Below are positions 6,411-63,913 of a DNA stretch of 64,000 bases, in pieces (the stretch's first letter is position 1; the number at the start of each line of letters is the position of its first letter). The notes under the pieces were generated by a model. That model was not told the origin of the DNA. It did not search any database and was given only the letters and a program-made list of their open reading frames with translations. The translations under genes and the position numbers were made by a program. Source of the DNA: Paenibacillus thalictri (GTDB lineage Bacteria; Bacillota; Bacilli; Paenibacillales; NBRC-103111); assembly GCF_004307995.1 (NCBI RefSeq), contig NZ_SIRE01000004.1, positions 403,309 to 467,308 on the forward strand, read 5' to 3'.

Positions 6411-6468
6411 CGAGCGGTTTCCCCTGTTACGAGGTTCACTTATTTAATAGAAGACTATGAAACCGAAC

Positions 6469-7770: not shown

Positions 7771-7779
7771 CCTTTCGAT

Positions 7780-8637: not shown

Positions 8638-8700
8638 CGCCTAAAATTGATGTCGAAATGGAATTTCGCATCGGCTCCATCACTTGACTTAGAGCGCTCC

Positions 8701-9594: not shown

Positions 9595-9649
9595 GTGTTC
9601 CTCCTTCGCAACAAGCGGGCCGATCCGTAAGAAAGACCGGTATCAGGGT

Positions 9650-11005: not shown

Positions 11006-11047
11006 TCCATATCAACCTCCTTGAGTAATTGCTACTTCAGTATAACG

Positions 11048-11067
11048 GCGGTTGAAAGCGGTTGAAA
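11048..11067. promoter_or_regulatory. Perfect tandem 10-bp direct repeat GCGGTTGAAA x2 in the promoter region of the SBP/permease operon. Candidate response-regulator binding site.
   Basis: Seen directly: gcggttgaaagcggttgaaa, located about 45-65 bp upstream of the SBP start and just downstream of the AraC-type response regulator gene. Confidence 0.3.
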
Positions 11068-11164
11068 TGAAGGATACCGCCAACATTCTGTAACATTCTT
11101 GGAATCCGCGATTGCGTGCAATGACATAACATACTTTCTCGTATGATTATTAACCGAATCTGGA

Positions 11165-42492: not shown

Positions 42493-43260
42493 TTACGCGT
42501 CCGGATACAGCAGCTCCACAACCTCTGGAAGCAGCGTGTCCGTCTCATCGTCGAACTTCAGAAAGTCAAACCCGGACCCAAACGAACACAGCAGCTCCAG
42601 ATCGTACTCCCGCTCCAGATCCGGGTTCCATTGGAACACAAAAACGGCTTCCCCATGATCAAACTTTCGGGGTAAACAACCCGCTGCGGTTCGGAGCAAT
42701 CGGCTCCCCAAGCACAAAGCCGTGATACACTTGTATCCGCCTGCCTTGAATGTTGAATAAAAGTGCCGCAACGCCAAATAGTCGAACCGGTCCGCGATAT
42801 GGTTCGCTGCATCGAACAACGACCGAACCTTATCCTCAAATTCCACCAAATCCGCTCCCGCTTCCATCAAGGCCTGTTCGATCTTCATGAAACGATCCAG
42901 CATCCCTTGGCTCAAATCTGCCAACTCCGCATATGACTTCTTGTCGTTCTCAGCCATTTGCTCCAGCTGACGGGCGTTGAACCGGTTCAACCGGTTGATC
43001 TCGCCTGCCGCATCCGATTGGCGAAGCTGCAGCTCATAGATCTGCCCGTCGACGGATTGGATCAGAGCTCCAATCGCACGCCAAACCGGCTGGACATCAT
43101 CATTCGCATACTCCAGCCGATCCAGCAACGCCATCCACATCAAACTAAGCAAAGCGACCTTCTCGCCCTCATCCAGGGATGACCATGGTTTCCCGCCGCA
43201 CTGTTCTTTTATTCTCCGTATCACATGCCCGTGAAACGATTCATCAATGTAGTCTTTCAT
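42493..43260 (-). CDS. Hypothetical protein (255 aa), operon member
   Basis: Clean ORF overlapping the upstream phosphoesterase gene by 17 nt; no recognisable motif. Confidence 0.5.
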   Translation of the reverse strand: MKDYIDESFHGHVIRRIKEQCGGKPWSSLDEGEKVALLSLMWMALLDRLEYANDDVQPVWRAIGALIQSVDGQIYELQLRQSDAAGEINRLNRFNARQLEQMAENDKKSYAELADLSQGMLDRFMKIEQALMEAGADLVEFEDKVRSLFDAANHIADRFDYLALRHFYSTFKAGGYKCITALCLGSRLLRTAAGCLPRKFDHGEAVFVFQWNPDLEREYDLELLCSFGSGFDFLKFDDETDTLLPEVVELLYPDA

Positions 43261-43807
43261 CCAGCTCTCCCCCTAGTCTGAAAGCTTCATTGTTGGCGAT
43301 CAACTGTTGCAGGCCCACCGGTGTAAAATGATTGATGTCCACCCCTGCATTCAGCATGTTCGGATTGTTCCCGTAGTAGCGGAAAGCGTCGCAATCCCGA
43401 TTGTTGTGGATATGCCCAAATACATGCAGGCTCCCCTTGTAATACCTGGGCCATTCGGCCATCGGATAGTGGCAAAGGACCAGATGCCGGTCCAAATCCG
43501 TAATCTCCTTGATCTGGCTTACGCTTTCGAAATACGCCGTCAACTCAAGCCGCTTCGTCCATTTCTCGTGGTTGCCCAGAATGAGGTGTTTCCTCCCGCT
43601 GAGCTGCCGTAAATAGTACTCCGGCGTATGCCGGGACCGTAACATAAAATCGCCGACGATATAAACCTCATCCTCATTCCCGACCGTTTGATTCCAATTC
43701 CGCATGATCGCGTTATCCATCTCATCAATCGTGGCAAACGGCCGCCCACACATGCGAATTACCGCTTCATGCCCAAAATGCGGGTCCGCGATATAAAATT
43801 TGTTCAT
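43244..43807 (-). CDS. Calcineurin-like metallophosphoesterase (187 aa)
   Basis: Motifs DPHFGH, GDF, GNHE, GHIH in canonical order. Confidence 0.8.
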   Translation of the reverse strand: MNKFYIADPHFGHEAVIRMCGRPFATIDEMDNAIMRNWNQTVGNEDEVYIVGDFMLRSRHTPEYYLRQLSGRKHLILGNHEKWTKRLELTAYFESVSQIKEITDLDRHLVLCHYPMAEWPRYYKGSLHVFGHIHNNRDCDAFRYYGNNPNMLNAGVDINHFTPVGLQQLIANNEAFRLGGELDERLH

Positions 43808-44736
43808 GTTTCCTCAACTCCCGCAATTTCATTAAATTCCCGTCTCCAGTGAAAATACTCAAGATCCGCGGCATCGCCGGTCCAGTCAAGCAGATCGCAG
43901 AACAATCCCGGCTTCAGATAGAACGTCTCCTCGGGAAAAGCGGCGGCCGGTTTCGAGAGCCGTATCCGTAAACGTTCAATCCACTGCTCCAGCAGTTGAA
44001 CACTGTACACCATATAACCTAAATGAACGGGCTCATATGATGAGTAAGGCTTGAAATAGGAGGCATGGCTATTTAATACCTTTGTTCTGAAAAGGCCCAT
44101 CGTATGCTCCAGCGTCTGCAATAATTTGGATGCGCTGCGGTCGAACGGCTCGGAACCGACCGGGGACAATCGGGTGCGTTCATTCACTTCTCCGATGATT
44201 GCAAACAGCTTTCCAGCCAGTCCCCTCAATGCCTCATATTCCCGCTCTCCTGATCTTGTCCGGAGCAATACGGCAAATCGGCCCAAGCGGCCGATCTGAT
44301 CTCCACAGCGGGCCTCCCCTCCCTCCAACTCTTCTCCATCCATACATGCAGCCGAATCAGCCAAATTCGCGAATTCCTCCGTCACCCCGCCAATATCGAT
44401 GCCGAATGCATCCAATCTGTCCAGCAGCGCTACGAATACCTCGCCTGATCCGATCTGCCGGCTGCAGACCGGCTTGGCTTGCAACCTGGTCCATAACCAA
44501 TAAGGAATCCCGGTTTCATCCATATCCTGATTTTCCGCCATAGTTTCTTTAACCTCCCGATAAAAATCATTGTCCCAACCATCGCCGCGGCCAAACCCTA
44601 GCACTTGTTCCGTATAAGGCTGTAAAGGCTCCGAAAACTCCAGCGCGGGCACGTCTGCGTCCTCAAGGTTTTTTCTGGTCACCCGTCTCACCTTCACATC
44701 TTGCGCCTTCATCGTTGAACGGCCGATATGGAGCAA
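43804..44736 (-). CDS. Hypothetical protein (310 aa), operon member
   Basis: ATGA-type 4-nt overlap with the phosphoesterase gene start region; begins 4 nt after the AAA gene stop. No known motif. Confidence 0.5.
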   Translation of the reverse strand: MLHIGRSTMKAQDVKVRRVTRKNLEDADVPALEFSEPLQPYTEQVLGFGRGDGWDNDFYREVKETMAENQDMDETGIPYWLWTRLQAKPVCSRQIGSGEVFVALLDRLDAFGIDIGGVTEEFANLADSAACMDGEELEGGEARCGDQIGRLGRFAVLLRTRSGEREYEALRGLAGKLFAIIGEVNERTRLSPVGSEPFDRSASKLLQTLEHTMGLFRTKVLNSHASYFKPYSSYEPVHLGYMVYSVQLLEQWIERLRIRLSKPAAAFPEETFYLKPGLFCDLLDWTGDAADLEYFHWRREFNEIAGVEET

Positions 44737-44739
44737 TCT

Positions 44740-46542
44740 TTAGTGGAATCCGATTCTGCTTTTCTCCCGCGCTCCGTTAAAAATGTTACGTTCGGCACCG
44801 AGCAATTCCTCGGCCGCCTTCTCCATATCGGCGGTCTTTAACGTCCGCAGGTCATTGTCCTCCCGCTCGGCCATATAACCCACCGCGCTTTTGAACAGCT
44901 TGCGGATCAATCTGCCATTCCCCATATTTTCGGAGCGGATCGTTCGGATCCCGTTCACAAAGCATCTAATCGTTTCATAAGCTGTTGCCGCATTCTCCAG
45001 AACGTAGTCCTCTTTATTCGTAAAGTAAGCAAACATCTCGCACAGCTCATCCACGCTATAGTCCTTGAATTCAATTACGTTGGTCAGCCTGGAACGCATT
45101 CCGGGGTTAGCATGTTGAATGAAACGCCTCATCGGATCACCATACCCGGCGAAAATAACCAGCGTATCCGGGTTATTCTCCATCTGCCGGATAATCTCCG
45201 ATAATGCCTCGTCCGAGTAGCCGTCCGCTTTCCCTTCGCTCATCAGGCTATAGGCTTCGTCTATGAAGATCGTTCCGCCTTTTGCCTCCTCGAAGACTTT
45301 GGCGACAGTCGGTGCTGTCCAGCCGACATACATGCCCACCAAATCTTTTCGCGAAACCTCCTTAAAAGTATCGTTCGCCAGCACATTCGCTTCACACAGC
45401 ATCCTGCCGAAAATACGCGCGACGGTTGTTTTGGCTGTTCCCGGACTACCCATAAACACCGCTGCGGCATGACTGTCGGATGTCGGGTAACCACTGTTTC
45501 TCCGCTGTTTGTCAAAACTCAAACGTTTCAAAAGACGGTTTAGCTGAGCCTTCACATCCCCCATCCCGATGAGCCTGTCCAATTCGGATTTGGCATCCTT
45601 CGCCTTTCCCGAGGTTTCGTTTTTCTTACGGATATCTTTTGCGATTAATGACGAATCGAAGTCCGCTTGGGTTATCGTTCTGCTGTCGTCCCGCTTCTTG
45701 CCGATGGCTTTGCTCACGAAGGTTTCAATGTCTACGGAGCTCCGGAAGCTCATCCCGCGGTAATCCATCAGCTCCCGGATCAGCTTTGTTCTATTCAACG
45801 ACCGGGTTAACTTATAGCCCTTTGCTTTGGCGATGTCGCCAAGAACCTTCCCATAATACTGCACCGTCGGCCGTTCAAGCACACAGTACTCCATATTTGT
45901 CTCGAACAAAACCGACTTCTCGAAGAACGCAACATTGCCAAAGGAACCGAAATGCGACTCCCGTTCAGGCCGGGTCACCAGAATATAGATGAGGAACCGT
46001 CCGGACTGTTCGAAATATTCGAAGGGATCCTTGGAATTCAGATGCATCCCATCGTGGTCTTCGACGATCAAGGGATAATCCCCCGTTTTCCAGTAAGGTT
46101 CTTTAGCCTTCACCTCTCCCTCCATACGGGTGTTGAAAGCTCCGAAGCCCATTCCGAACGGCGGATTCCGCATAAATGCGCAGCTGAATTCAACCGCCGG
46201 AATGACGGGCAGATAGGCCAGATCATCCCTCCGATAGAGAATCGATTCGGAGGTCACTTCTTCCTCCCCGTCCTCATCTTCATCATCAAGGTCCATCGGG
46301 AATTCCTCTTCCTCATCGCAGCAATCCTCTTGTGCTTGCTCTTTAGCGCAGGCAACCTCCGCTATGTATTTCTTAAATAAGTAGCCGGCCGCGAGCAATC
46401 CGTCCTCCGCATAATGGCATTTGATCAGCACGCTGCCTGCTCCCTTCAGGTCCAGCTTATCGATCGAGGCCAGATGGTCCGCTATCGCAAAGTCCGCCTT
46501 CAGCTTGTCATAGGGCAGCTCCGGAACCGGAATATACTGCAT
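44740..46542 (-). CDS. AAA+ ATPase of the CbxX/CfxQ/SpoVK(EccA-type) family with ~330-aa N-terminal domain of unknown function (start re-assigned to ATG 46542)
   Basis: Walker A VFMGSPGTAKTTVAR, Walker B GGTIFIDEAYSL, sensor region SRLTNVIEFKDYS. Strong RBS GAAGGAGA 4 nt upstream of MQYIPVPEL. Acidic tract DEEEEFPMDLDDEDEDGEEE. Confidence 0.8.
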   Translation of the reverse strand: MQYIPVPELPYDKLKADFAIADHLASIDKLDLKGAGSVLIKCHYAEDGLLAAGYLFKKYIAEVACAKEQAQEDCCDEEEEFPMDLDDEDEDGEEEVTSESILYRRDDLAYLPVIPAVEFSCAFMRNPPFGMGFGAFNTRMEGEVKAKEPYWKTGDYPLIVEDHDGMHLNSKDPFEYFEQSGRFLIYILVTRPERESHFGSFGNVAFFEKSVLFETNMEYCVLERPTVQYYGKVLGDIAKAKGYKLTRSLNRTKLIRELMDYRGMSFRSSVDIETFVSKAIGKKRDDSRTITQADFDSSLIAKDIRKKNETSGKAKDAKSELDRLIGMGDVKAQLNRLLKRLSFDKQRRNSGYPTSDSHAAAVFMGSPGTAKTTVARIFGRMLCEANVLANDTFKEVSRKDLVGMYVGWTAPTVAKVFEEAKGGTIFIDEAYSLMSEGKADGYSDEALSEIIRQMENNPDTLVIFAGYGDPMRRFIQHANPGMRSRLTNVIEFKDYSVDELCEMFAYFTNKEDYVLENAATAYETIRCFVNGIRTIRSENMGNGRLIRKLFKSAVGYMAEREDNDLRTLKTADMEKAAEELLGAERNIFNGAREKSRIGFH

Positions 46543-46758
46543 GATGTCTCCTTCACTTAAACGGGCTGACATTTTTTTGGCACTGGTAATTCTGAGCATT
46601 GGTCATTCATCCTTTCGGTTTCGTATGTTACTGGCTTGCAACTCCTTCTATATTTTGATTATATCGCGCCCGATGGGGAGAAATTTGGACATCCCCCGAT
46701 TGACCATCCGTCCCTGGGAAGGTAAAATTTTCTTATCCTACCTCAGGAGGAACCCTCT

Positions 46759-47772
46759 TTGGAAAACAAATTGCCAACCCAATTTCAAATCTATTCCGTT
46801 CTCAAGCAATTTTCGTCTGCGGATCATCCTATGAATGCTGCGGAAATCAAAGAAAAATTGATAAGCATGTATCATCTGCCGAAGGGGCCCGACCGTAAAA
46901 CCGTCTATAGCCATATTCATGAATTGCAGGTACTGTCGGATAACGGCATTCTGGATTGTGAAATCTTCGCCAAAAAAGACGATCATAACAGAACCGCCGG
47001 TTATTATACCGACCCCGTTATAACCAAAGCGGAAGTGAAGCTCCTCTGCGATGCCATTGCCTATTCACGTTTCATAAAGAAGAATCACAGCATCGATCTG
47101 ATTAAGAAAATAGGCGGGGCTTTCGGCAAGGATTTCATTTCCAAGTACAAGTACATCCTGGAGTTAAAAAACAAAGAGAACAAAGATTATAACGATTCCT
47201 TTTTCAACAGCATCGAAAATATCGCTGACGCCATAGAGAAAGGAAATAAAGTAACACTTCAATACTTGCAATATGATCTGAATAAAAAATTGGTGCCTAA
47301 AGATAAAGAAAACGACGGTTTCCGTACGGTAAGTCCCTATAACTTGGTTTGGACATTAAACCATTACTATTTGTTCTGCCACGTTGAAGAGCATGGACAA
47401 GATCGATTTCTGCGGATGGATAAAATCAAGAATGTAACCGTATTAGAAGATGAGAGAATCAAGCCGCTTCCCGCAAGCTTTAATGTCCGGGACTACATCC
47501 GGAATCAAGCTTTCATGTTCGGAGGCGACCTGGTGAGCATTTCCCTGCGTTGTGAAATGCGTATGCTGGGGCAAATCATCGATTTCTTCGGTGAAGATGT
47601 AGAGATCGCTCCCATCGACGACCATTATTTCAGAGCCCATATCAAAAGCTCCATCGAGAGCATGAAATATTGGGTGCTGCAGTATATCACTGCAATCGAT
47701 CAGATCCAACCGGAGAGTCTGCGGAAAATGATCGTGCATTATTTGGAGGACGCTTTGAGGCGGAATCAGTAA
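46759..47772 (+). CDS. wHTH-WYL-domain transcriptional regulator (BrxR/CapW-like)
   Basis: N-terminal wHTH (FQIYSVLKQFSSADHPMNAAEIKEKL) and WYL domain (YNLVWTLNHYYLFCHVEEHGQDRFLRMDKIKNVTVLE). TTG start with AGGAGG RBS. Divergently oriented from the AAA/Sel1 operon and directly upstream of McrBC-like genes. Confidence 0.75.
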   Translation: MENKLPTQFQIYSVLKQFSSADHPMNAAEIKEKLISMYHLPKGPDRKTVYSHIHELQVLSDNGILDCEIFAKKDDHNRTAGYYTDPVITKAEVKLLCDAIAYSRFIKKNHSIDLIKKIGGAFGKDFISKYKYILELKNKENKDYNDSFFNSIENIADAIEKGNKVTLQYLQYDLNKKLVPKDKENDGFRTVSPYNLVWTLNHYYLFCHVEEHGQDRFLRMDKIKNVTVLEDERIKPLPASFNVRDYIRNQAFMFGGDLVSISLRCEMRMLGQIIDFFGEDVEIAPIDDHYFRAHIKSSIESMKYWVLQYITAIDQIQPESLRKMIVHYLEDALRRNQ

Positions 47773-47780
47773 AGGAGCGT

Positions 47781-50408
47781 ATGATTGAGACGGATGAGCT
47801 GTGCTCACAGGAAGAAAGCAGGAGGAATATGGGCATTATAAACGACTTTTCGCTGAATAAGCTTGTTGAGATTAAACGGGCGGCACAGGCTTACAACGCC
47901 GTCTTGATTACCGGCGGCTGCGGGACGGGTAAAACTTTCTTGGCCAAAATAGCAGCGAATGCCATTGCTAACGGTTATGCGGAGGAAGATACGGACAAGC
48001 TCGACGACGCGATTTGCGATAATGTCGAGTTGATTCATTTGCACCCGGGTTACGGTTATGAGGATTTCGTACAGGGGGTTTTCGTCAGCACTGTAAATGA
48101 CGATCTGAAATTCGAAACAAAACCGAAAATATTTCTACAGGCGATCGATTGTGCCCTGCGAAAGGAAAATAGGGACAAAGCTGTAGTGCTCATTCTGGAC
48201 GATATTCACCGGGTCAACGTCTCGTCCGTATTTGGCGAGCTGCTGTCCGTCTTGGAGAACCATCGCTCGGAGCAGCCCCAAGACGAGATTACGTTGGTGA
48301 ATGGCACACGGATTCCCATGCCGAGCAATCTATATCTCATCGCCACGATGAATACGGCGGTACCTAGCCCTTTTGTGCTGGATTATGCGTGGCTGAGAAG
48401 GTTTGCCGTCGTGCGTTTGGAATCCGATTACAGGTATGTGAAGCGCGGGCCTTCCTCCCTTGAGAAAGATACGGCGGAGCAGTTGTACGATCGGGTCAAT
48501 TCCATTGTGGCCGGCGGCGCGGACAATCCGACTGAAGCGGTTCAATATGCAATAGGGCACGGTTTTTTTGCCGAAGCGCCATTCCTGACTTCAAGAATTA
48601 AACGCCAGATCATTCCTCTGTTGAAGCAATATGTATTGGACGGAATTTTGGATGAATCGAAGGTGGGAACGGAAATCGACAGTCTGGACGCCAGTCTTAG
48701 TACCGGGATTACTTTGGACTACAATGACGTCGCTTCCTTCGACCTGTCAATGACGTTAAACAGGCTGAAAGAGACAGATATAGCTGATTATTTGGCTAAT
48801 ATAGAAGACAAAAGACGGTTTCAAGTGGAATTGATCGAACATCTGATTTGTCAAATGATAGAACGTAAGCTGATAGGGAACTTTGAACTGTTTTACCGTG
48901 TCATGCGCAATCCCGATATATTTCATTATCTTGAATCTGATGTCGAGCTTCATTTATTCGAGCCGCAAAATAAAAGTATCAAATTTCACGACAAACCTTC
49001 ACATTATTCAGCGGTCAAGAACAGCAATATGGTGGAGATTCACGTTTGCGGAACCAAGTATTTCCCATTCCGTGTCTATACGGCCAAAAACCAGAAAACG
49101 GCCTTAAGCAGCAATCCGAACAGAGAAAGCTCTAAAAGCTCGCTGAACCCTTTTCCTATCGCCTTCCGGATGCTTTATTATTTTTACAAGACTTATCGGG
49201 ACAATGTGAACGATTATGTTGCCAAATTCCCGGGCGACCACAATATGAAGCTGCTGCTCAACCTGGCGGACGATGAATTCAATTATATCAAGAGCTTTGA
49301 CAAACGGACAGCTAAGATCGTATGGGAGGATGACCCGGATCATCTCTCACTCGCAAGGCTCACGATTCTTTGGCCGCGGAAGGAAGACGGTAATTCAATC
49401 GAAATCAAAGGAGTATATCGAATGGAAGCGAACGATTACATAGACATCATGGATAATATGGAAGTGAGGCAGATGATTCTGCAAGGGCCCCCAGGTACTT
49501 CCAAAACCTATACGGCCAAGGACATGATTGCAGCAAAATGGAGCATTGCCAAAGATGAACTGAAAAACTTCAAGATTCCGTCCTACGACCAAGCTTGGGA
49601 TAAACCGTTTGGCTGGGACATCGTCCAATTTCACCCTTCTTACGGATATGAGGATTTTATAAGAGGCATCACTGTGGAAACGCCGGAAAACTCCACGGCT
49701 CCGCATTATAAAACGGTCAATAAACTATTAGGGCGTATGGCAGATTTAGCCCTCCGCGAAATCCATAGCGGGAAGAAGTTTTACCTTATTATCGACGAAA
49801 TCAATCGAGCCAATATCGCCACGGTGTTCGGGGAATTGATCTATGCATTGGAATATCGCGGCGAGCAAGTAGCAACTCCTTATGAAGTGAAAAATACGAA
49901 TTCCATCGTTCTTCCCAAGAACTTATACATTATCGGCACGATGAACACCGCGGATAAATCGGTCGGAGGGATCGATTATGCGATTAGAAGGAGATTTTTA
50001 TTCTTTTCGCTGACACCGGACGCAGGTGTAATTGAAACATATTTTGAAGGCAAACCCGGCGTGGAAGACGTTAAGAAGAAAGCCATCACATTGTTTCGCC
50101 ATATCGGCCTGTTTTTTGACAGCTATTTATCGGACGGATACCATAAGGATGATTTGCAGATCGGGCACACCTATTTCTTGGTCGACACGGTACAACAATT
50201 AAAGGATCGGTTCAAATATCAAATTGTCCCTATACTGCGCGAGTATTATAAGGACGGTTTGCTCGATAGCGGAGAAAGCGAAACCAAGCCGGAATTGAAA
50301 GATTTAAAAGCCTTTATTTCCGGAACCGAGGGATCGGCGGACGCGATGTTCGCGAAGTTAACGGCGGCAATTACGGCGGCGGCAGCAAACGGTCAGAAAG
50401 CGGAATAG
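47781..50408 (+). CDS. McrB-family AAA+ GTPase with two tandem AAA+ modules (N-terminal module degenerate, C-terminal canonical); start uncertain (47781 or 47829)
   Basis: Module 1: Walker A LITGGCGTGKTFLAK, Walker B-like LILDDIHRVNVSSVFGELLSVLE, IATMNTAVPS. Module 2: ILQGPPGTSKTYTAK, LIIDEINRANIATVFGELIYALEYRG, IIGTMNTADKSVGG (canonical McrB DEINRAN and NTAD motifs). The track ORF start at 47670 overlaps the regulator gene by 100 nt and is rejected. Confidence 0.75.
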   Translation: MIETDELCSQEESRRNMGIINDFSLNKLVEIKRAAQAYNAVLITGGCGTGKTFLAKIAANAIANGYAEEDTDKLDDAICDNVELIHLHPGYGYEDFVQGVFVSTVNDDLKFETKPKIFLQAIDCALRKENRDKAVVLILDDIHRVNVSSVFGELLSVLENHRSEQPQDEITLVNGTRIPMPSNLYLIATMNTAVPSPFVLDYAWLRRFAVVRLESDYRYVKRGPSSLEKDTAEQLYDRVNSIVAGGADNPTEAVQYAIGHGFFAEAPFLTSRIKRQIIPLLKQYVLDGILDESKVGTEIDSLDASLSTGITLDYNDVASFDLSMTLNRLKETDIADYLANIEDKRRFQVELIEHLICQMIERKLIGNFELFYRVMRNPDIFHYLESDVELHLFEPQNKSIKFHDKPSHYSAVKNSNMVEIHVCGTKYFPFRVYTAKNQKTALSSNPNRESSKSSLNPFPIAFRMLYYFYKTYRDNVNDYVAKFPGDHNMKLLLNLADDEFNYIKSFDKRTAKIVWEDDPDHLSLARLTILWPRKEDGNSIEIKGVYRMEANDYIDIMDNMEVRQMILQGPPGTSKTYTAKDMIAAKWSIAKDELKNFKIPSYDQAWDKPFGWDIVQFHPSYGYEDFIRGITVETPENSTAPHYKTVNKLLGRMADLALREIHSGKKFYLIIDEINRANIATVFGELIYALEYRGEQVATPYEVKNTNSIVLPKNLYIIGTMNTADKSVGGIDYAIRRRFLFFSLTPDAGVIETYFEGKPGVEDVKKKAITLFRHIGLFFDSYLSDGYHKDDLQIGHTYFLVDTVQQLKDRFKYQIVPILREYYKDGLLDSGESETKPELKDLKAFISGTEGSADAMFAKLTAAITAAAANGQKAE

Positions 50409-50411
50409 CCC

Positions 50412-51818
50412 ATGAAAAATAAGCTTTTCCCAGGAAACGACTGGTCTGTCCTCAACAAATTGCCAGACTGGCTGACAGACCTGGACCTCAGCGACCGGCA
50501 TCATCCTTACACCAACCTTGGAATCTATCAGGATCAACAAGGCCGTTACCTTGCGAAGGGATATGTCGGCGTATGCAGGCTAAAGGCAAACGGCAGAAGG
50601 GTGCTCGATAAAGAAGGACGGGAGTGCATCCTGCGGGTAGTGCCTCGTTTTCCGGGACTGGAGCCACTCGCCATGTTGAATGAATTGCAGGACGATGACG
50701 AATTCGCGCAATATTTAATGCCGGAAAGGGCGCTTTTGAAGGGAAGCACGGAGGAATCCAAGGATATCCTGGACAATGAACTGTTTTACTTTTATCCGAA
50801 TGAACCGCTGATCCCTTTAGCTCATGAGGCTATGAAAGACAGCAGCCTATTAACGGTTATGCTTTTTCTTAACGGCTTGAAGGCGGTGTGCAGGAAGCCG
50901 CTCATGGGATCGATGCAGCAACACGAGGAGAATTTAACCGGCAAGGTCAAAGGTAAAATACTGGTATCCCCTAATATTAAACATAATGCGGCGAGAGCAA
51001 GAGTTGAGCGTATATATTGCCGGTATCAAGTGTATAGCATGGACATCCTTGAGAACCGGATTTTGAAATATGCGCTCCATAAAGCAAACCGGTTTTTGAA
51101 TCGATTTTTCAGCCATGTCTCAACGGACTCACTGCAGAAGATCAGGCAAGCGGTACATTATTGTAATAAGGCACTGGAGCATGTAAGCCTGAAGAACATA
51201 ACGGAAGCCGAGCTCAGATCCGCCAAAGCCGCCGGGTTTTACGCTTATTACAAGCCGGTGCTGGAGGCCGCGAAGATGGTCATCAAAGGCATCTCGATTC
51301 GAGCCGACGGCGAAGTGGAGGATGTAGGTTACATTACCCCATATGCCATCAATATGCAGAAGCTGTTTGAGTTTTATGTGAGGGCGGTGATCAAGCGAGA
51401 GTTGAAGAAAAACCCGGATTGGCATATATCGCTTGAGCCTTATTTTAAACCGCATGAGATTCACCGCAACGAAAACATTTACTTGATGAGAAATGTCCGG
51501 CCCGATATTGTGCTCAAGTACATGAAGCTTGAAGGGGACCAATCTGAAGCTAAATATATCGTATTCGATGTAAAATATAAGAGGAGTGACAACAAATTTT
51601 CTGCAAGGGAAGATACTCACCAGCTCCTGAGTTATCGAATGTTATTTGATGCGGAGCATATCGGGTTCCTATTCCCGAATTGTGTAGAAAGCAGCCAGCC
51701 CACCGAGATTGTCTCGCGGCAACATACAAAAACTTACTATTATCAATTCAAGGTCTCTTTAGAAGAGAAAGGCTGTGCAAAGCTATGCCAGTTTCTCGGA
51801 GGTATTGGCAGTTCTTGA
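50412..51818 (+). CDS. McrC-like PD-(D/E)xK nuclease subunit
   Basis: 468 aa immediately downstream (4-nt gap) of the McrB-like gene. Nuclease motif RPDIVL...IVFDVKYK near the C-terminus; N-terminal McrC-like region. Confidence 0.65.
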   Translation: MKNKLFPGNDWSVLNKLPDWLTDLDLSDRHHPYTNLGIYQDQQGRYLAKGYVGVCRLKANGRRVLDKEGRECILRVVPRFPGLEPLAMLNELQDDDEFAQYLMPERALLKGSTEESKDILDNELFYFYPNEPLIPLAHEAMKDSSLLTVMLFLNGLKAVCRKPLMGSMQQHEENLTGKVKGKILVSPNIKHNAARARVERIYCRYQVYSMDILENRILKYALHKANRFLNRFFSHVSTDSLQKIRQAVHYCNKALEHVSLKNITEAELRSAKAAGFYAYYKPVLEAAKMVIKGISIRADGEVEDVGYITPYAINMQKLFEFYVRAVIKRELKKNPDWHISLEPYFKPHEIHRNENIYLMRNVRPDIVLKYMKLEGDQSEAKYIVFDVKYKRSDNKFSAREDTHQLLSYRMLFDAEHIGFLFPNCVESSQPTEIVSRQHTKTYYYQFKVSLEEKGCAKLCQFLGGIGSS

Positions 51819-51831
51819 AGCTTTTGATATG

Positions 51832-51857
51832 AGACCGCCGCGGCGGTCTTTTTTTTG
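51832..51857 (+). terminator. Rho-independent terminator closing the WYL-McrBC module
   Basis: AGACCGCCG/CGGCGGTCT perfect stem followed by TTTTTTTT. Confidence 0.8.
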
Positions 51858-52190
51858 TTCATGTGCGGTTATACATAGTTGGAGTAGATGATGGGATGGA
51901 CGTTCCTTCGACAGCAGCTTGCGGATGGGGGCGACGAACCGCTCCTTCTCCCTCCAAGCTGTGTTACTATTGTCGTTTGATCTTACATACCTTCACAGCG
52001 TCTCCCGGCAAAGCCAACAATGACTCCCCCTTGCCTCGGCCTACTCCTGCACGTGCCGTGTATCCTTCCTTATGCGTATCGCTTCCGCATGCTCTTTTCG
52101 ATAGCCGAACCACCTGCTCAAAATGCTCAAGCATTACCCGCAACGCACAAAACACACGCTTCCCCTCAAGGACTCGGAGTGAGGTTCTTC

Positions 52191-52589
52191 TTAATAAGAT
52201 ATTAAGTGCCCCCAATAATACACTCTTTTCCCCTCACACCTTGCCATAGCTGCACCAGACAACAACTTCGCCGTTTTCCGATCAATGAAGCCGTCGGTGG
52301 TGTACGGATTGTAGTACGCCTCCCGCAGGGGGGCATCTCCGGCTCCCAGCATCTGTAACCCACGCTGGAATCGACCTCGGACGAACGCATGCACGTTCTT
52401 CTCTTTGTCGCGGCGTGCACGTCGCTGGCCCGAAAGGCGAACGACAAACGTGACGTTGGTGACAACAATGCTGTCAGCGTAGCCGAGAATGCGCTTCGTT
52501 CGCGCATCGCGGATGGAAAAACAGCATTTGTAGAAATGATAGGCAATCAGCACAACCTGATCTTCTTGCAAAAACGAGAATTCCACCAT
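52191..52589 (-). CDS. Hypothetical protein (132 aa); possibly a gene remnant at the module junction
   Basis: ORF with weak resemblance to a DDE-transposase core (ILGYADS). Adjacent 82-aa ORF 51967-52215 in another frame suggests a decayed gene; nothing conclusive. Confidence 0.25.
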   Translation of the reverse strand: MVEFSFLQEDQVVLIAYHFYKCCFSIRDARTKRILGYADSIVVTNVTFVVRLSGQRRARRDKEKNVHAFVRGRFQRGLQMLGAGDAPLREAYYNPYTTDGFIDRKTAKLLSGAAMARCEGKRVYYWGHLISY

Positions 52590-52675
52590 ACCCTATCACC
52601 CGTTTCTTTGTGATAGTTACTAGTATGCTGGAATTCACTGGTTTTATAACCGCGGCAGCGAGTCATTCGGCATAT

Positions 52676-53476
52676 TTATACTGTACACACACAAGGCACG
52701 GTATCTTCTTCCATAGCGGAGTAAGACGCCGCTCCTTCACGCTCGAGCAACTCACGGTATTCACGGAGCGTGTAGGGACCACCGTTTTTTTTCAAAATCG
52801 AGACGTCCTTGTCAAAATGCTCCCGAAACTGCTCTTCCATTTCTTCCTGTTCCCGGTACACATCCGGCCACGTCTGCAACAGATGAGCGTAGTGCTGAAA
52901 GCCGCCACGGACACAACGTCCACCGCAGTTAGCATGAGAGAAGCCCAGCTCATACATAAGAGGCAGCTTAATTCCCCATTTGTCTTCGATAATTTTCTTT
53001 GCATCAACCTCTTCTCGGAATGTCGTGATTAAGGGAAACCGAGTCTCAACAGGCTCGAGCGGGTAGTGCTCGTAGAAGTTTTTGAGATTGACCGCACGGT
53101 GCTGCTCATGGCGTCCGATACCGAAGTAGAGCACAGGCTCAAGTTGATGGTCCGAACGTAGTTCCTCAAGGAAGATGAGTGTTTGCCGCACTTTCAGCTC
53201 TTCCGAGCACTTGGCCAGCCTTGAATTACCCATGAAACGGTAGTCGTAAAATACCTGCTCCGGCGTCCGCCCGTCAGTACGGTACGTAATTTCGAGCCCC
53301 AGGTAATCCGCAACCTCATGCATAAATCGATAATTATCTTCATGCTCCCACAGCGTGTTCGTAAAAAAGAGCATGCAGTTCTCCTTACCGTACGTGTTAA
53401 CCATATGATAAGCGACATACGCGGAGGATGCTCCCCCGCTGTACATGGCAACATGGATGGGTTTGCGTTCAACCAT
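52676..53476 (-). CDS. PAPS-reductase-like PP-loop ATP pyrophosphatase (DndC/SspD-like)
   Basis: PP-loop VAMYSGGASSAYVAYHM (SGGxxS variant) near the N-terminus, 266 aa, C-terminal Cys cluster (CGGRC...CVCTV). Confidence 0.65.
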   Translation of the reverse strand: MVERKPIHVAMYSGGASSAYVAYHMVNTYGKENCMLFFTNTLWEHEDNYRFMHEVADYLGLEITYRTDGRTPEQVFYDYRFMGNSRLAKCSEELKVRQTLIFLEELRSDHQLEPVLYFGIGRHEQHRAVNLKNFYEHYPLEPVETRFPLITTFREEVDAKKIIEDKWGIKLPLMYELGFSHANCGGRCVRGGFQHYAHLLQTWPDVYREQEEMEEQFREHFDKDVSILKKNGGPYTLREYRELLEREGAASYSAMEEDTVPCVCTV

Positions 53477-53509
53477 AGTCAGCTCTCCCTCCTTGGCTGT
53501 AAGATCAGC

Positions 53510-56500
53510 TTACACTTCCTGCAATAGCTTCATTAGTAGTTGCTTAAGTTCCTGGGGCGGCACATCGCGGCCTCCATGTTTGAGAATGTTTTTCACATTC
53601 GCATACAGTGTCTGCGATTTCTTGGAAAGTGGCTGCGTCAGATCGACTTCGGCGCTCATCCCTGCAGCCACCTGTATCGCCGGCAGCAACAGCTCCCATT
53701 CATACTTCATCTGTTTGCCAAAAAGCTCCTGCGTCGCGTCCGACCATGCTTTCCGCCCTACTCCCACCATATGCTCAATGAGTCCCTCCAGCAGTCGTTC
53801 CTCCATACCTGCGCCCAGCGGCAACGTTTGTAGCCGACTATTAAGCCCTATTGCGGCGCCGCGCAGCCGCAATAGTTCCTGCACGAACGCCGGTGCGGAA
53901 TCTACACCGGCCAAAGCGAACAACTCGCTTTCCAATTGAGCCCGATTCATGTCCATGAAGCCCTCTAGCTCAGTGCGAGCTTCAACCAGCTGTGGCTCCA
54001 TCGCGGCGAGTAACCGGATGTTCCGGTACGGATCCGTCTCCGTCGCGCGGATATATGCCCGAATCTGCTGCGTCCCCGTAGACAACTGGCTCGTGATTTG
54101 GGCAAACATCGGCAGCCCGCGCAACCAAGCGAGCATAACGTCCGTAACACGTAAGAAACTTGTCGCTTCCTCCACGGGTAAGCCAAAATGCGCACCAATG
54201 CGGGCAAGCTGCCCTTTTTCCTGCGACGTCAGAATGAAGTAGCGGTATTCATAATCGTCTGCTCGCTCAATCAGCTCATAGACGGACTCGCCGTTTAGGT
54301 GCGTAGTAAGCATATCTCCGGCATAGAATAGCAGTTGCTCCCAATGCCCGCGCAGCAGCGCCACAAACAGTACTGGAATGACGGCTGCGCGGATGCCGTA
54401 GGGCGGCTCTTTCAAAATGCGCACGAGGTCAGCTAGCGAGCCAAATGGCTTCTGTCGGATATGGTTAATCAACTCCATAGCCAAAGGTTGCAAGCCAGAA
54501 TCCGGCTGTAGCCCCCCGCCTGGTTCACACAGAAAACCGTTGTTCTTCAACGTGCTGACATAGATGAGATAATTTGGTCCGTATCCGGTGATACCGAGGT
54601 TTGGCTCCTCCGGTTGACAGATCAGTCGGTTGATGACATCGATGACAGCCCGTTTCTGAATCGCAGAGATGCGATTGCGGTTAAACGCCTCATTGCGAAT
54701 TTGCGGCGTACCCGTATACGTATTTTCTAGACGCTCCGAAAGCAATCTTTCCAACTCAACGACAGAGCGCAATTCACGATGTTCTCCATTTACCCACCAC
54801 CTCAACTGCTCAAATGACACATAGGGTTCCACGAATTGCCGAATTCGTGAGCTCGTCTGCTGCTGAAGATACTGAAGTTCATTCTTCAGCCGGGCATCCT
54901 GAGCCGTGAAAGAGCTGTCCTGGAGCAGTGCTTCGATAACCGCATACTGCCTCAGGCTCGGCCACACGCGTTCAGCCACGAATGAAGGAATCGCGCAAAT
55001 TTGCTCAAGTTTCAGGCGCTCTAATTGTGTCGCTCCTTGCTGCATTTGCTCCTCATCATCAAAAAGGACGAGCAAAACCTCGTCATCCGCTAACGCTGGC
55101 GTGGACGGAGCGACCTCCTGCTCCAGTTGATCGAACCAGACAAATCGATACGTAGCATAGCGAAGCATATACATCCGATCGTTGTATTCATTGGGCAGCA
55201 CATACGGCGTCGGCAAATGCTTACCCAACAACTCGACCGCCGCTTTGCGGCTCAGTGCCAGCGTCGCCACACGCTCGGCAATGACATTGTCGATATCCAC
55301 TGAGCTGCCGTCATGTAGCTCCCACTGCAGTCGCACCTCGTTGTAGCGCACAATCTTGAGCGCTGCCAACTGCGCAAGATTTTCCACCACTTCGTCAACA
55401 GCTACACCAAGTGCAAAAGCAATGAACGCTGCGCTCATCTGCTGCTTCTGTGCCAGGCGGCTGACTGCGCCGAGCGTCAGCAGGCGGGCGATACGTGTCT
55501 GTAACGGAGCCCTCCGTGCCAGATAAGGCGCGATCCGGCGATACAACAGCAACGCCGGCTGATCGGGTTGGTCCGCGTGATCCATGTCGAAGTAGCTGAA
55601 CAGCTTGTCCGCATAATAGTATCCGTCTTCCTGGGTAACGTGGTCACGCAATCCGTAACGCTCATCGTCGCCATAGAAGGAGAAAAGCGTTCGTTCATTT
55701 TGACCAAACACATTGGATAAGAACGGTAGTATAACAACAGCTGCAGGATGCAGCGGATACAAGCCCTGAAGGATGTAATTTTCCAACTGGTAAGGTGTGA
55801 ACTCGGTGAATAACGGATAGCTCTGCAGATTAGCAAAAGTCTCTTTCTCTGCTGCCGAGATCAGGCTATGTGCATTGATTTCGGTTCCCGCCTCCTGGGC
55901 AAGACGCAAATAAGTGACAGCGTCTGTTTCCAACTGGTAATGACGAAAGCGTTTTTCCACCTTTTCAAACTCGGTACGAATCTGTTCTTTGCTTTGTGCG
56001 GCGTATTGGCGGATATGCTTGTGACCGACCAGCAGCAGTTGCAGATTCGGCACGCTGTTCGCGAGCTCTGCCAAGTCCTGCAAATCCTGCATGTTGCGGA
56101 TCGCATCCTGTGGCCTCAGTGACTGCAGGAAGCGCCCGAATTCATCATAGACAAGCGTAATACCTTGTCCATGCTGCCTCAGCTCCTCTAGCAAGCGCTC
56201 GATATTATAGGTAAAATGTTCTTCATGCCCCACGCTCCAAGCTGTACCCGAGGTCACACTAGGATAGAAGTCGATGAACGCCGCGATTAGCTCCTCACTG
56301 TACCCTTGCACCTGCCGCAGCCACTCTGCCTCTTCGAGCTTCAGGCTAGCCAAATGCTCCCGAAACGCACTGTATGCATGGGGATACAATTGTCTCCAAC
56401 GCTCCACCGTGGTGAGAATGCTGTGAACTTCGTTCGGCGTCGTCACGTTCAACCCTGCCTGCTGCAGCGCTCTGTGCAACGCAGCGTTGATGATTGTCCG

Positions 56501-56857
56501 TAGCTCCCCCGATTTGCCGTTAATGATCACGGGCAGATAAGCCAGCGATAATGGCGGCAACCGCCGCAGCCGATCAGCCAGTATCTGATCGTAGCGGTCA
56601 GCCTGCCGCAGCAGCTTGTCCCACCAATCGGCGTTAAACTGGCGGGAAAACAGTTGGCACACAATCGCCGAGACTAGCGACTTTCCGGTCCCATAGGGGC
56701 CGACCAGCAGATGGGAGTGCATGCCCTCGGGACTTTCCACACTTTCCAGAATGCCTCGTAGCACATCTGCATGCGAAGTAGACAGCAAATAGCGATCTAT
56801 CAGGCTTTCATTGGTAAGATCAAACTGTATGTTAATACTTGCTTTATAACGAGCCAT
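53510..56857 (-). CDS. Large P-loop ATPase, DUF499/BrxC-like (candidate SspC-like); start at 56857 (stop/start overlap TAATG) or 56878
   Basis: Walker A LLVGPYGTGKSLVSA near the N-terminus. >1100 aa, largely alpha-helical remainder, the size and architecture of BrxC/PglY/SspC-type ATPases. Translationally coupled to the upstream gene. Confidence 0.55.
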   Translation of the reverse strand: MARYKASINIQFDLTNESLIDRYLLSTSHADVLRGILESVESPEGMHSHLLVGPYGTGKSLVSAIVCQLFSRQFNADWWDKLLRQADRYDQILADRLRRLPPLSLAYLPVIINGKSGELRTIINAALHRALQQAGLNVTTPNEVHSILTTVERWRQLYPHAYSAFREHLASLKLEEAEWLRQVQGYSEELIAAFIDFYPSVTSGTAWSVGHEEHFTYNIERLLEELRQHGQGITLVYDEFGRFLQSLRPQDAIRNMQDLQDLAELANSVPNLQLLLVGHKHIRQYAAQSKEQIRTEFEKVEKRFRHYQLETDAVTYLRLAQEAGTEINAHSLISAAEKETFANLQSYPLFTEFTPYQLENYILQGLYPLHPAAVVILPFLSNVFGQNERTLFSFYGDDERYGLRDHVTQEDGYYYADKLFSYFDMDHADQPDQPALLLYRRIAPYLARRAPLQTRIARLLTLGAVSRLAQKQQMSAAFIAFALGVAVDEVVENLAQLAALKIVRYNEVRLQWELHDGSSVDIDNVIAERVATLALSRKAAVELLGKHLPTPYVLPNEYNDRMYMLRYATYRFVWFDQLEQEVAPSTPALADDEVLLVLFDDEEQMQQGATQLERLKLEQICAIPSFVAERVWPSLRQYAVIEALLQDSSFTAQDARLKNELQYLQQQTSSRIRQFVEPYVSFEQLRWWVNGEHRELRSVVELERLLSERLENTYTGTPQIRNEAFNRNRISAIQKRAVIDVINRLICQPEEPNLGITGYGPNYLIYVSTLKNNGFLCEPGGGLQPDSGLQPLAMELINHIRQKPFGSLADLVRILKEPPYGIRAAVIPVLFVALLRGHWEQLLFYAGDMLTTHLNGESVYELIERADDYEYRYFILTSQEKGQLARIGAHFGLPVEEATSFLRVTDVMLAWLRGLPMFAQITSQLSTGTQQIRAYIRATETDPYRNIRLLAAMEPQLVEARTELEGFMDMNRAQLESELFALAGVDSAPAFVQELLRLRGAAIGLNSRLQTLPLGAGMEERLLEGLIEHMVGVGRKAWSDATQELFGKQMKYEWELLLPAIQVAAGMSAEVDLTQPLSKKSQTLYANVKNILKHGGRDVPPQELKQLLMKLLQEV

Positions 56858-57744
56858 TACCGCGCCGCCGCCTTCCATTCATAAGCCTTCTCCAGGAACG
56901 CGTATGGATCTTCGGCTTCAACCGTTAAGTTGTAGATCTGGTTCGTTCGTACGAAATGCACTGGATAGCGGGGATCTGCTTCCAATTGCGTGAGCGCATC
57001 AAGGATATGATTGGAGCTCAAATTGAACATTTTGCCCCACAGCAGCGGTTTGTATTGTAGCTCCTCCAATGTCACACTGCTAACCTGCGATCTCTGGCAG
57101 TACACCAACAATGCAAAGTAGAGCGCTTCAATGCTCACATCCATCAGCTCCGGTGTCCGCTTCACGAACTGCTCTTTGATTTCATGCAGCAAATGCAGCC
57201 CGGTGAGCGGGCTTGCCACTACTTCCTCGGGATCGTCCTCTTGACGCGAGCGAATCGTGTACAGTTGCCTCAGGCAGTCGAGGTCTTTTTTGAGCGAGCC
57301 CGCGGAAACCGTCTTGCTCGTCTGTTGCCGTGTCCACTCCGTGAGAGCTGCATGCAGTTCCTCATTCGTTGCGGAGCGAGACGCATATTCATTAAAAAAC
57401 CAATACCACGTCGTGGCCTGATCCCGATTCGATGCAAGAAAATAATGCAACAGCCCCGAGGTTAGCGGCAGCCGGATAAAGCGGTCGTGCCGATGCATCA
57501 ACTGGCCGAACGGAGTGATGACGTTAATCGGCCGACCTTCCTCGTTCTTCGCTTCCGCGATCACACCCGTCGCCAGCGACCAGAACTTCAGCGACTTCAC
57601 CATATTACGCCCCAGTCCAATGCGTTCAAAGCCGAAGTCGTCGTAGAAAAACCTTGCGCCCTGCTCATCCTCGAGCAGCATCCGGATCGCTTTTGACAAC
57701 CAATTCACCCGCAAGTAGAAACTCTGATGATGTCCAAAACGCAT
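56857..57744 (-). CDS. DUF4007-like protein (candidate SspB-like)
   Basis: N-terminus MRFGHHQSFYLRVNWLSKA matches the remembered F.(R/G)HE.F..R..WL.K signature of DUF4007. 295 aa. 10-nt gap to the upstream giant gene. Confidence 0.5.
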   Translation of the reverse strand: MRFGHHQSFYLRVNWLSKAIRMLLEDEQGARFFYDDFGFERIGLGRNMVKSLKFWSLATGVIAEAKNEEGRPINVITPFGQLMHRHDRFIRLPLTSGLLHYFLASNRDQATTWYWFFNEYASRSATNEELHAALTEWTRQQTSKTVSAGSLKKDLDCLRQLYTIRSRQEDDPEEVVASPLTGLHLLHEIKEQFVKRTPELMDVSIEALYFALLVYCQRSQVSSVTLEELQYKPLLWGKMFNLSSNHILDALTQLEADPRYPVHFVRTNQIYNLTVEAEDPYAFLEKAYEWKAAAR

Positions 57745-57753
57745 AGAGCGAAT

Positions 57754-62910: not shown

Positions 62911-63913
62911 AGCTGCCCTCCATCGCGCTGGCATAAGGATTGTGAATCATCGCGGTCGCATCTGAGAATTCCACCAACAGCCCATTAAGCTTGAGCTTAC
63001 TGCGGAGCGCCTTCTCATTTTCCTGAAAATACCGCACATTTAGCTTCGATCTGGTATAGAGTCCACTGCTCTTTGCCTGCTGTTCGCCGATCACGATGTG
63101 ATAATCCTGGTAGAGCGTCTCAAGGAATTCGTGGTATTCCATCTTTTCCTTAGGCCTTACCTTCGTGAACACAAGCATTTGCAGAAACGAATCCGAGATC
63201 GTGTACCGGTAATTTGCCCCTGAACCCCGACGGAACGTCGCAAAGCCCCCATCACGTGAAAGTGTACGTGTAACGTTCAGTTGGTGCTTCTTCATTTGCT
63301 CAGACACCGCTTCGCGTACTTCCGAATACAGCTTCGTCAACACATCATCGGTCGTGACGCACTTGGCTAGTACACGTTTGATCGCTTCTTTGCGTTTGAC
63401 CATCGATTTGAGACCCAACTTATCGATGAACGCATCAGGATCCAACTTCCAAGCCGGGAGTTGTTCTGCAATCTGCTCAGGCTGCCCTACCGCATGCCTG
63501 AAGTTCTGCTCAAACTCGCGTTCAAAACGACTTTTTATTAAATTCTCATGCTCGTCAAAAATACGTGCAGACTGCTGAAATAACGGTTTATTACCGCCTT
63601 CCAGACAATCGCAGAAATACAAGTGGTCCGAGTCCTCTTGCAGCGAGCGCTCATGCATGTACCGGGCTAACTGGAAACAAACAAGCGAGGTCAGCAGATG
63701 AAACATATCCAGAATTTCGATATCGACCAATAACAATCGCTCAAGCTCATAAGCAAACTGCGTGAACAGTTGCTTATTCTCCTCGTAGGCTGAAGAAGGC
63801 AGCATGGGTACTTCATCCGGAGCATTCTTCCCGGTCCCTGTTTTTTTTGCATACAACTGCCCTCGCTCTTCTTTCTCACGAATTTCAAAGGCACCTGTAA
63901 TTTTCTCCACCAC
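62903..63913 (-). CDS. Hypothetical protein, >=336 aa (frame stays open to the window end, so it may be longer); candidate DndG/SspG-like partner
   Basis: Clean ORF overlapping the downstream giant gene. Frame continues without a stop from 63913 to 64000. No motif recognised. Confidence 0.4.
   Translation of the reverse strand: MVEKITGAFEIREKEERGQLYAKKTGTGKNAPDEVPMLPSSAYEENKQLFTQFAYELERLLLVDIEILDMFHLLTSLVCFQLARYMHERSLQEDSDHLYFCDCLEGGNKPLFQQSARIFDEHENLIKSRFEREFEQNFRHAVGQPEQIAEQLPAWKLDPDAFIDKLGLKSMVKRKEAIKRVLAKCVTTDDVLTKLYSEVREAVSEQMKKHQLNVTRTLSRDGGFATFRRGSGANYRYTISDSFLQMLVFTKVRPKEKMEYHEFLETLYQDYHIVIGEQQAKSSGLYTRSKLNVRYFQENEKALRSKLKLNGLLVEFSDATAMIHNPYASAMEGSYV

Follow-up and report, generated by a model that had tools for sequence, protein, structure and literature searches.

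In a 64-kb window of the Paenibacillus thalictri genome (the whole stretch of DNA that was analysed, to which all window-level results refer), we characterised a two-gene cassette that encodes a McrB homologue with two tandem AAA+ modules, followed by its McrC partner. McrBC is the textbook GTP-driven restriction motor and, to our knowledge, each chain in the solved McrBC complexes has a single AAA+ module, the DNA reader being placed at the N-terminus or on a separate subunit. We propose that the P. thalictri pair is a horizontally acquired McrBC-type nuclease with a two-module motor and a target that does not depend on methylases, a reading to which, taken as a whole, we give a probability of about 0.55. 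The parts of this proposal differ in strength. On its motifs, the pair is very probably a functional McrBC-type nuclease; a regulatory or assembly role for the first module is an even bet; and it is somewhat doubtful that the enzyme specifically requires modified DNA, as far as its sequence can tell. In its components and general logic the system follows McrBC and LlaJI, and it is not a new category. Its motor is duplicated and half-degenerate, and what is unusual is the methylase-less form of the P. thalictri copy.

An earlier note on this DNA had described a McrBC-like pair whose McrB homologue carries two tandem McrB-type modules, the first degenerate and the second canonical, and every motif that it quoted for both modules and for McrC is indeed present in the translations. 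Residues 563-825 match E. coli McrB (6hz4) with E=2.3e-25, and contain LQGPPGTSKTY (with the second Walker A at residues 569-576), LIIDEINRANI, GTMNTADKSV and IDYAIRRRFL. We aligned 21 members of the double-AAA+ family, and the GPPGTSKT-Y, DEINRAN, MNTADKS, RRRF and IGHTYF motifs of this C-terminal module (C-module) were invariant throughout. The full McrB catalytic set, that is Walker A, the Asp-Glu of Walker B, NxxD and the paired arginines, is found in the C-module and not in the N-terminal one (N-module). The alignment thus makes the C-module a predicted GTPase with every catalytic residue of canonical McrB. Aligned with one another, the two modules of the P. thalictri protein share 32-35% identity (E about 1e-33). 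Moreover, the top structures for the full-length AlphaFold2 (AF2) model (predicted local distance difference test, pLDDT, 69) were the McrB proteins of E. coli and T. gammatolerans, with template modelling (TM) scores of 0.67-0.72 normalised to the target. The first Walker A comes after only about 25-40 residues, and Pfam, NCBIfam and PADLOC matched no domain outside the AAA+ modules, in agreement with the earlier claim that an N-terminal reader is lacking.

The partner completes the pair. It matches the Pfam family McrBC (PF10117) at 3e-32, and an NCBIfam McrC match (3.5e-16) lies below the cut-off. The IVFDVKYK sequence corresponds to residues 383-390 and is preceded by RPDIVL. In an alignment of 19 sequences, P364 and D365, then D386, V387 and K388 were invariant, so the PD-(D/E)xK signature that had been attributed to this protein withstands alignment. 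McrC relatives are numerous, with more than 120 clusters at about 40% identity.

The N-module departs from this canonical picture. Its residues 32-288 match E. coli McrB 6hz4 with E=3.4e-20, and its motifs read TGGCGTGKTF, LILDDIHRVN and ATMNTAVPSP. The P. thalictri copy keeps Walker A (GCGTGKT-F), the Mg-binding Asp140, the lid His260 and the RR pair, and is altered in Walker B, where DD replaces the usual Asp-Glu, and in NxxD, which reads NTAV. Across the family, Walker A GxxGxGKT with its following aromatic residue (GKT[F/Y]) and the Mg-binding Asp are present in 21/21 members, and the GHG of the lid, equivalent of the base-contacting His of McrB, is invariant. The second residue of Walker B is Asp, never Glu, in all 21. 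The Asp of NxxD persists in only one (L003, MNLSD), the Asn of this loop is sometimes replaced by Ser, and the paired arginines are kept in only 4/21, the P. thalictri copy among them. Indeed, the P. thalictri N-module is the least degenerate of the family. As for its origin, internal duplication and fusion were compared, and the N-modules proved about equally similar to the C-modules of the family and to single-module McrBs.

In McrB structures, the attacking water is held in place by the Glu of Walker B together with the Asn of the NxxD loop; stimulation by McrC passes through the Asp of this loop, and the two arginines work in trans (preprint 10.64898/2026.08.31.748284). Because the residues that bind nucleotide in cis are kept, whereas the Walker B Glu and the NxxD Asp are lost, the N-module looks competent to bind nucleotide, poor at hydrolysis and unresponsive to McrC. 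The degeneracy announced in the earlier note is therefore confirmed over 21 members, in which the catalytic residues are not all retained. Its term 'pseudo-GTPase' is nevertheless too strong a label where it implies a dead enzyme, since all cis nucleotide-binding residues are invariant; the module need not be fully dead. A degenerate relative of McrB, PcdA, hydrolyses ATP and GTP slowly (PMC10602043). The same note had taken NTAD for the GTP-specificity motif, a view that is outdated now that structures place guanine recognition in the N-linker and not in NTAD (preprint 10.64898/2026.08.31.748284).

We then considered the region between the two modules, which had been described as a spacer of about residues 330-600 devoid of recognisable motifs. 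The absence of motifs holds; the limits do not, and the region spans residues 296-545 or so. It is the fastest-evolving segment of the protein, with 16-23% identity to the family compared with 30-36% for the N-module and 52-61% for the C-module, yet it can be aligned along its full length. The P. thalictri copy lacks the conserved basic RRGG...YNGG segment common to the other members. A phmmer search of the middle region against 1.84 billion representative proteins returned the query itself only, and Pfam gave no match at E<=1. In the full-length AF2 model this region is mostly below pLDDT 50. A model of the middle region built from a 12-sequence alignment reached pLDDT 56.6, the helices predicted at 344-375 and the hairpin at 458-510 being the better-modelled parts, and Foldseek against the PDB found nothing below E=1 for it, only helical hairpins. 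With no fold or sequence match, an EVE, YTH, SRA or B3 reader in this region receives no support, and the suggestion that the spacer is a modified-base reader finds none in Foldseek, phmmer or Pfam. The position and the variability of the region fit a specificity domain, as judged from the alignment.

What makes the P. thalictri locus peculiar appears when it is compared with its relatives. A protein search retrieved about 30 full-length relatives of 870-1050 amino acids (aa), 34-38% identical, and a genome scan added 19 further loci, mostly from Lachnospiraceae, Oscillospiraceae and Clostridium; in the collections searched, the family comes mostly from gut Clostridia. The closest homologue among the database matches is only 38% identical to the P. 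thalictri protein, and the comparison makes the latter the outlier, that is the most divergent member of the double-AAA+ McrB family, at 35-38% identity to proteins that measure about 880-1060 aa. At all 26 homologue loci with upstream sequence, one or more DNA methyltransferase genes, at least one of C5 type, lie directly upstream of the double-AAA+ gene. At 25 of these 26 loci there are two C5 methyltransferases (M1 and M2), encoded by separate genes in most and fused at L005 and L027; the remaining locus, L025/L026, has a fused C5/N6 methyltransferase. A Vsr mismatch endonuclease gene is often present downstream. By contrast, tblastn of the 64-kb window revealed no C5 methyltransferase and no Vsr, and domain scans of its large open reading frames (ORFs) revealed no DNA methyltransferase.

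The literature bears on this family only indirectly. Our searches on tandem or double-AAA+ McrB found no description. The CoCoNuT census names a methyltransferase-associated McrBC clade, which it defers to a later paper (PMC11090510). In C. cellulovorans, an operon of two methyltransferases and two restriction genes acts as a methylation-sensitive barrier (PMC11779793). The family of that operon is uncertain; the size of the Clocel_4006 deletion, about 4 kb, is compatible with the double-AAA+ family, to which Clocel_4006 may belong.

Full-length matches were absent from the plasmid and phage collections, where one phage carries a split family member. This is Ruminococcus phage NatCom_38182 (L032, PV036450.1), one of the 26 loci above, with M1, M2, the double-AAA+ McrB and McrC at 1210-7861. 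McrB is annotated there as two coding sequences of 677 and 227 aa, either because of a frameshift or because the gene is really split, and each of the five genes bears the label 'hypothetical protein'.

The cassette itself is, on synteny, an insertion at about 47790-51857 behind a pre-existing gene for a WYL regulator. A metagenomic contig (L028) is 80.6% identical in nucleotides (nt) to positions 44746-47791 of the window, a stretch that takes in the WYL gene, a SpoVK-like AAA gene and the promoter region between them, and three WYL homologues of 55-79% identity, seen at four loci (L028-L031), have no McrBC downstream. It is because this synteny stops just past the WYL stop codon, about 10 nt into the annotated mcrB ORF, and because the WYL homologues occur without McrBC, that we conclude to an insertion. 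The earlier note had argued for recent acquisition from an AT-rich composition and a strong terminator. Both are real: GC is 0.42-0.51 over 48000-52000 versus 0.51-0.55 in most flanking windows of 500 nt, and the terminator hairpin, GAGACCGCCGCGGCGGTCTTTTTTTT, lies at 51831-51850. Horizontal acquisition is borne out too, better by the L028 synteny break than by GC.

Three ORFs are arranged head to tail on the + strand, encoding the WYL regulator, an 875-aa ATPase and the 468-aa McrC, and the mcrC start lies 4 nt past the mcrB stop codon. A longer frame with a TTG start is open from 47670 into the 875-aa ORF. The real start of mcrB, however, is probably ATG 47829 (M17) and not the annotated ATG 47781, since the homologues begin at the M17 position, an AGGAGG site precedes that ATG, and the first annotated codons are shared with a contig that does not carry the gene; L028 reads TTG where the annotated start stands. 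The deposited 875-aa protein is thus probably 16 residues too long. Identical entries (100%) of the ATPase, the McrC and the WYL protein, deposited for P. thalictri, are labelled 'AAA family ATPase', 'McrC' and 'helix-turn-helix transcriptional regulator'. The ribosome-binding sites and the terminator of the cassette are intact, and an Rfam scan of 46400-52800 gave no match.

How would such an enzyme work? The C-modules would form a GTP-hydrolysing hexameric ring, into which McrC would plug and stimulate hydrolysis, as in the E. coli and T. gammatolerans McrBC; this ring would drive DNA translocation and McrC would cleave. Type II AAA+ proteins such as NSF have a weakly hydrolysing assembly ring, and the N-modules, which would bind nucleotide and barely hydrolyse it, may form a comparable assembly or regulatory tier. 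Between the tiers, the middle domain would recognise DNA in place of the usual N-terminal reader. We favour two homotypic tiers over a ring of alternating modules because the arginines are mostly lost from the N-modules and invariant in the C-modules. That the P. thalictri enzyme works is suggested by a frame of about 4 kb and catalytic motifs that are intact at only 35-38% identity to the nearest relatives. An intact enzyme, the missing methylases and a diverged middle domain together point to a target that the host DNA does not contain. A base modification of foreign DNA would be one example, and on this reading the P. thalictri copy would behave as a Type IV-like offshoot of a restriction-modification (R-M) family. 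Its cassette would be transcribed by read-through from the WYL promoter.

Several points weigh against this proposal. The relatives are linked to methyltransferases, which argues for an ancestral specificity for unmodified sites, and the switch to a foreign-only target is assumed. The methylase negative covers the 64-kb window and is compatible with distant cognate methylases. The stacked-ring assembly is argued solely from the pattern of arginine loss, and the activity of the double-AAA+ family is read from sequence alone. The Asp-for-Glu change in Walker B may leave the N-module some residual hydrolysis, with PcdA as a precedent (PMC10602043). Finally, the DNA-binding role of the middle domain is purely inferred, its model being of low confidence and without a fold match. 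In its boldest form, which we consider speculative and on balance unlikely, our proposal would be a two-tier McrBC, in which a silent nucleotide-binding ring gates or scaffolds the GTPase ring with the recognition domain between them, and whose P. thalictri copy shed its methylases by replacing this domain, to become a stand-alone sensor of a foreign DNA feature outside the known reader folds. The literature searched gave no description of such a two-tier machine.

Taking the relatives as a guide, one could imagine instead that the pair is the solitary restriction half of a LlaJI-like R-M system, cutting an unmethylated asymmetric site, as is presumed of its relatives, with the host protected by C5 methyltransferases encoded elsewhere in the genome. 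The methyltransferase linkage in all 26 relatives with upstream sequence fits this well, as does the methylation-sensitive barrier formed by the four-gene operon of C. cellulovorans (PMC11779793), and the 64 kb analysed here belong to a contig that measures at least 502 kb. However, the window contains no methyltransferase or Vsr, and the cassette came as a restriction-only insertion with a sharp junction. A middle domain without detectable relative or RRGG...YNGG is, moreover, unlikely to match an inherited methylase, and we hold the whole explanation to be unlikely. The same absences could alternatively mean decay, the pair being an inactive relic of a former R-M operon, reduced to its restriction half and no longer cutting DNA. 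The methyltransferases and Vsr are indeed missing from the window, the middle domain is highly diverged and devoid of the conserved family segments, and the closest homologue among the database matches is just 38% identical. Yet about 4 kb of frame are uninterrupted despite 35-38% identity to the nearest relatives, every motif of the C-module and the PD...DxK of McrC are intact, the ribosome-binding sites and the terminator as well, and the N-module is the least degenerate in the family; a relic is, of the alternatives considered here, the one that we find hardest to believe.

Another scenario would make the WYL protein the key element: a suicide nuclease with little or no discrimination between self and non-self, which WYL as a repressor would silence, and which would be de-repressed on infection or DNA damage and lead to abortive infection. 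The gene mcrB begins 8 nt past the WYL stop codon as annotated (56 nt if ATG 47829 is used), no terminator or promoter-like site separates the two genes, the WYL promoter and a block upstream of it are conserved, and many defence systems are under WYL regulators (PMC9122601). However, the WYL gene has its conserved partner in a divergent SpoVK-like AAA operon, McrBC is absent downstream of the WYL homologues, so that the linkage looks accidental, and basal read-through of an autoregulated repressor gene would constantly express a nuclease that does not discriminate; this makes the scenario quite improbable. The last alternative concerns the assembly only. Three protomers could build one pseudo-hexameric ring in which N- and C-modules alternate, as concatenated AAA_5 modules do within the single ring of dynein, a protein that the full AF2 model also matches, and the RR pair kept in the P. 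thalictri N-module could complete the C-module sites. But 17/21 N-modules have lost one or both arginines while the RRR of the C-module is invariant. An alternating ring would thus leave the competent sites without arginine fingers and turn the invariant ones towards dead sites. We therefore regard the alternating ring as rather unlikely, and homotypic tiers stay our preferred arrangement.

The proposed nuclease can be set against known systems. Canonical McrBC (E. coli, Thermococcus gammatolerans) shares with it the catalytic elements of the C-module, the B-then-C adjacency, a McrC of the same Pfam family with PD-(D/E)xK and, as here, the absence of methyltransferase. It has the N-terminal reader that the P. 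thalictri protein lacks, whereas the latter possesses a degenerate AAA+ module and a 250-aa internal domain; its McrC is also about 120 aa longer than that of E. coli (348 aa). In type II AAA+ proteins (NSF, p97, ClpB/Hsp104, Pex1/6) there are likewise two modules per chain, one of them degenerate and with a presumed structural or regulatory role. These are classical AAA modules, however, whereas those of P. thalictri belong to the McrB/AAA_5 clade, with a large domain between them and a nuclease partner; two modules per chain are seen here directly, and the stacking of rings is deduced only from arginine loss. PcdA of Staphylococcus aureus has lost the Walker B Glu and an arginine finger, and still binds nucleotide and multimerises (PMC10602043). 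It is a single-module protein with EVE domains, without McrC and co-opted into cell division, unlike the degenerate module of P. thalictri, which is fused to an intact one and accompanied by McrC. The CoCoNuT systems (CnuB/CnuC) are also McrBC derivatives with inserted non-catalytic domains, and are defined by an NxD loop, coiled-coil partners and an associated helicase or HEPN (PMC11090510). The P. thalictri protein has NxxD (MNTAD), an intact nuclease motif in its partner and no long coiled coils. Membership of CoCoNuT is ruled out by the NxxD loop, and the neighbours are WYL and Ssp genes, with no CnuA, helicase or HEPN.

The closest operon logic is that of LlaJI, in which two methylases for an asymmetric site accompany McrB-like and McrC-like subunits that cut unmethylated DNA (PMC1459862; PMC12707154). 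The loci of the relatives follow this order, C5 methyltransferases then McrB-like and McrC-like genes; LlaJI has two C5 methyltransferases in its operon and the P. thalictri locus has none. The R1 subunit of LlaJI carries B3/BpuJI_N, a domain for site recognition, where the P. thalictri R1 has two AAA+ modules instead, and R2 belongs to RE_LlaJI (PF09563), not to PF10117. A Pfam scan of the P. thalictri pair gave no BpuJI_N or RE_LlaJI, domains that are present in the true LlaJI pairs of L023, L027 and L028, and the P. thalictri AAA+ modules are no nearer to the LlaJI-type R1 than to other McrBs. In L023 (Bacillus sp. FJAT-45350, 212-12809) and L027 (1639-12028), a LlaJI-type R1/R2 pair (BpuJI_N+AAA_5 and RE_LlaJI) precedes the double-AAA+ McrB and McrC in one array. 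Both pairs stand behind the methylases of the array, two C5 enzymes that are separate or fused; L023 has in addition a DUF2357+PDDEXK_7 protein and L027 a Vsr. A single pair of methylases seems to serve two different McrBC-like nucleases.

For the McrBC motor, a family whose chains combine an additional, degenerate module with a variable domain inside the protein would represent a new architecture. It raises the questions of how McrC threads into and stimulates a two-tier assembly, and of what nucleotide binding without hydrolysis is for. The methylase-less P. thalictri copy would moreover be a test case for an R-M nuclease that turns methylase-independent. If the enzymes of this family act as restriction barriers, in the manner of the C. 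cellulovorans operon, recognising them would help genetic work on the organisms that host them.

Table 1. Features of the cassette and its upstream region (window coordinates; residues as in the annotated proteins).
Feature	Position	Strand	Basis or remark
Promoter-like site TTGACC-17-TAAAAT, ahead of the WYL gene	46700..46728	+	promoter scan
WYL-domain helix-turn-helix regulator, 337 aa	46759..47772	+	Pfam WYL 1.3e-8, PADLOC WYL 4.5e-23
Double-AAA+ McrB homologue, 875 aa as annotated	47781..50408	+	ORF list and profile matches
Left junction of the inserted cassette	47786..47791	.	L028 similarity ends, about 10 nt into the annotated mcrB ORF
First McrB-type AAA+ module and lid, residues ~32-290	47874..48650	+	match to E. 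coli McrB
Middle region, residues 296-545, ~250 aa	48666..49415	+	presumed target-recognition or linker domain
Second, canonical McrB AAA+ GTPase module (predicted), residues ~555-830	49443..50270	+	match to E. coli McrB, motifs
McrC homologue, 468 aa	50412..51818	+	Pfam McrBC 3e-32
McrC PD-(D/E)xK residues	51501-51506 and 51567-51575	+	19-sequence alignment
Intrinsic terminator, 8-bp GC-rich stem then T tract	51831..51857	+	hairpin scan; closes the cassette

Upstream of the cassette on the + strand, the site ahead of the WYL gene is alone in resembling a promoter, and L028 and L030 share its conserved -35 and -10 hexamers. Because the scan between WYL and mcrB found neither a terminator nor a promoter-like site, the cassette is likely transcribed by read-through from this predicted promoter. 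The WYL gene, for its part, belongs by ancestry to the neighbouring operon and not to the cassette, as its homologues indicate: their partner is a divergent SpoVK-like AAA gene in L028, L030 and L031, and in L029 the divergent neighbour encodes a metallophosphoesterase. On these contexts and the synteny break, we reject WYL as a dedicated regulator of the cassette. Within 46660-46730, a block 5' of the WYL -35 hexamer, GGGGAG.A..TGG.CA, is kept in the window, L028 and L030, and an imperfect inverted repeat (46681-46695 / 46716-46730) is a candidate WYL operator. WYL and the divergent SpoVK/CbbX-like AAA+ protein form a conserved pair in the window (42493-47772) and in L028, L030 and L031. This AAA+ protein has 619 aa, of which the N-terminal ~320 have no assignment. 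Past its gene, the window continues with a 310-aa protein, a metallophosphoesterase, a 255-aa protein and a 1679-aa Sel1-repeat protein, and the leftward array of L028 contains an AAA_5 plus RE_LlaJI pair and a Sel1 protein. The WYL/SpoVK-like array may be an uncharacterised defence module.

On the other side of the cassette, positions 52676-63913 (- strand) encode SspD, SspC, SspB, SspH and a partial SspG (PADLOC E down to 7e-111), and neither SspA nor SspF turned up in the window. These genes form a phosphorothioate modification and restriction system that is convergent with the McrBC cassette, and it is because this system adjoins that we place the cassette in a defence island. We found no evidence of a functional link between the two, which lie on opposite strands, converge and differ in GC, SspG/H being already the restriction partner. 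Between SspD and the McrC terminator, a 132-aa ORF (52191-52589, - strand) matches Pfam Phage_L5_gp82 (PF25735, 1.2e-19) and is the last gene of the Ssp strand. Farther away, positions 19491-26543 (- strand) encode a 2350-aa S-layer-homology surface protein with lamin-tail and cadherin-like domains, and the window's left half otherwise consists of ordinary transport, regulatory and sugar-use genes.

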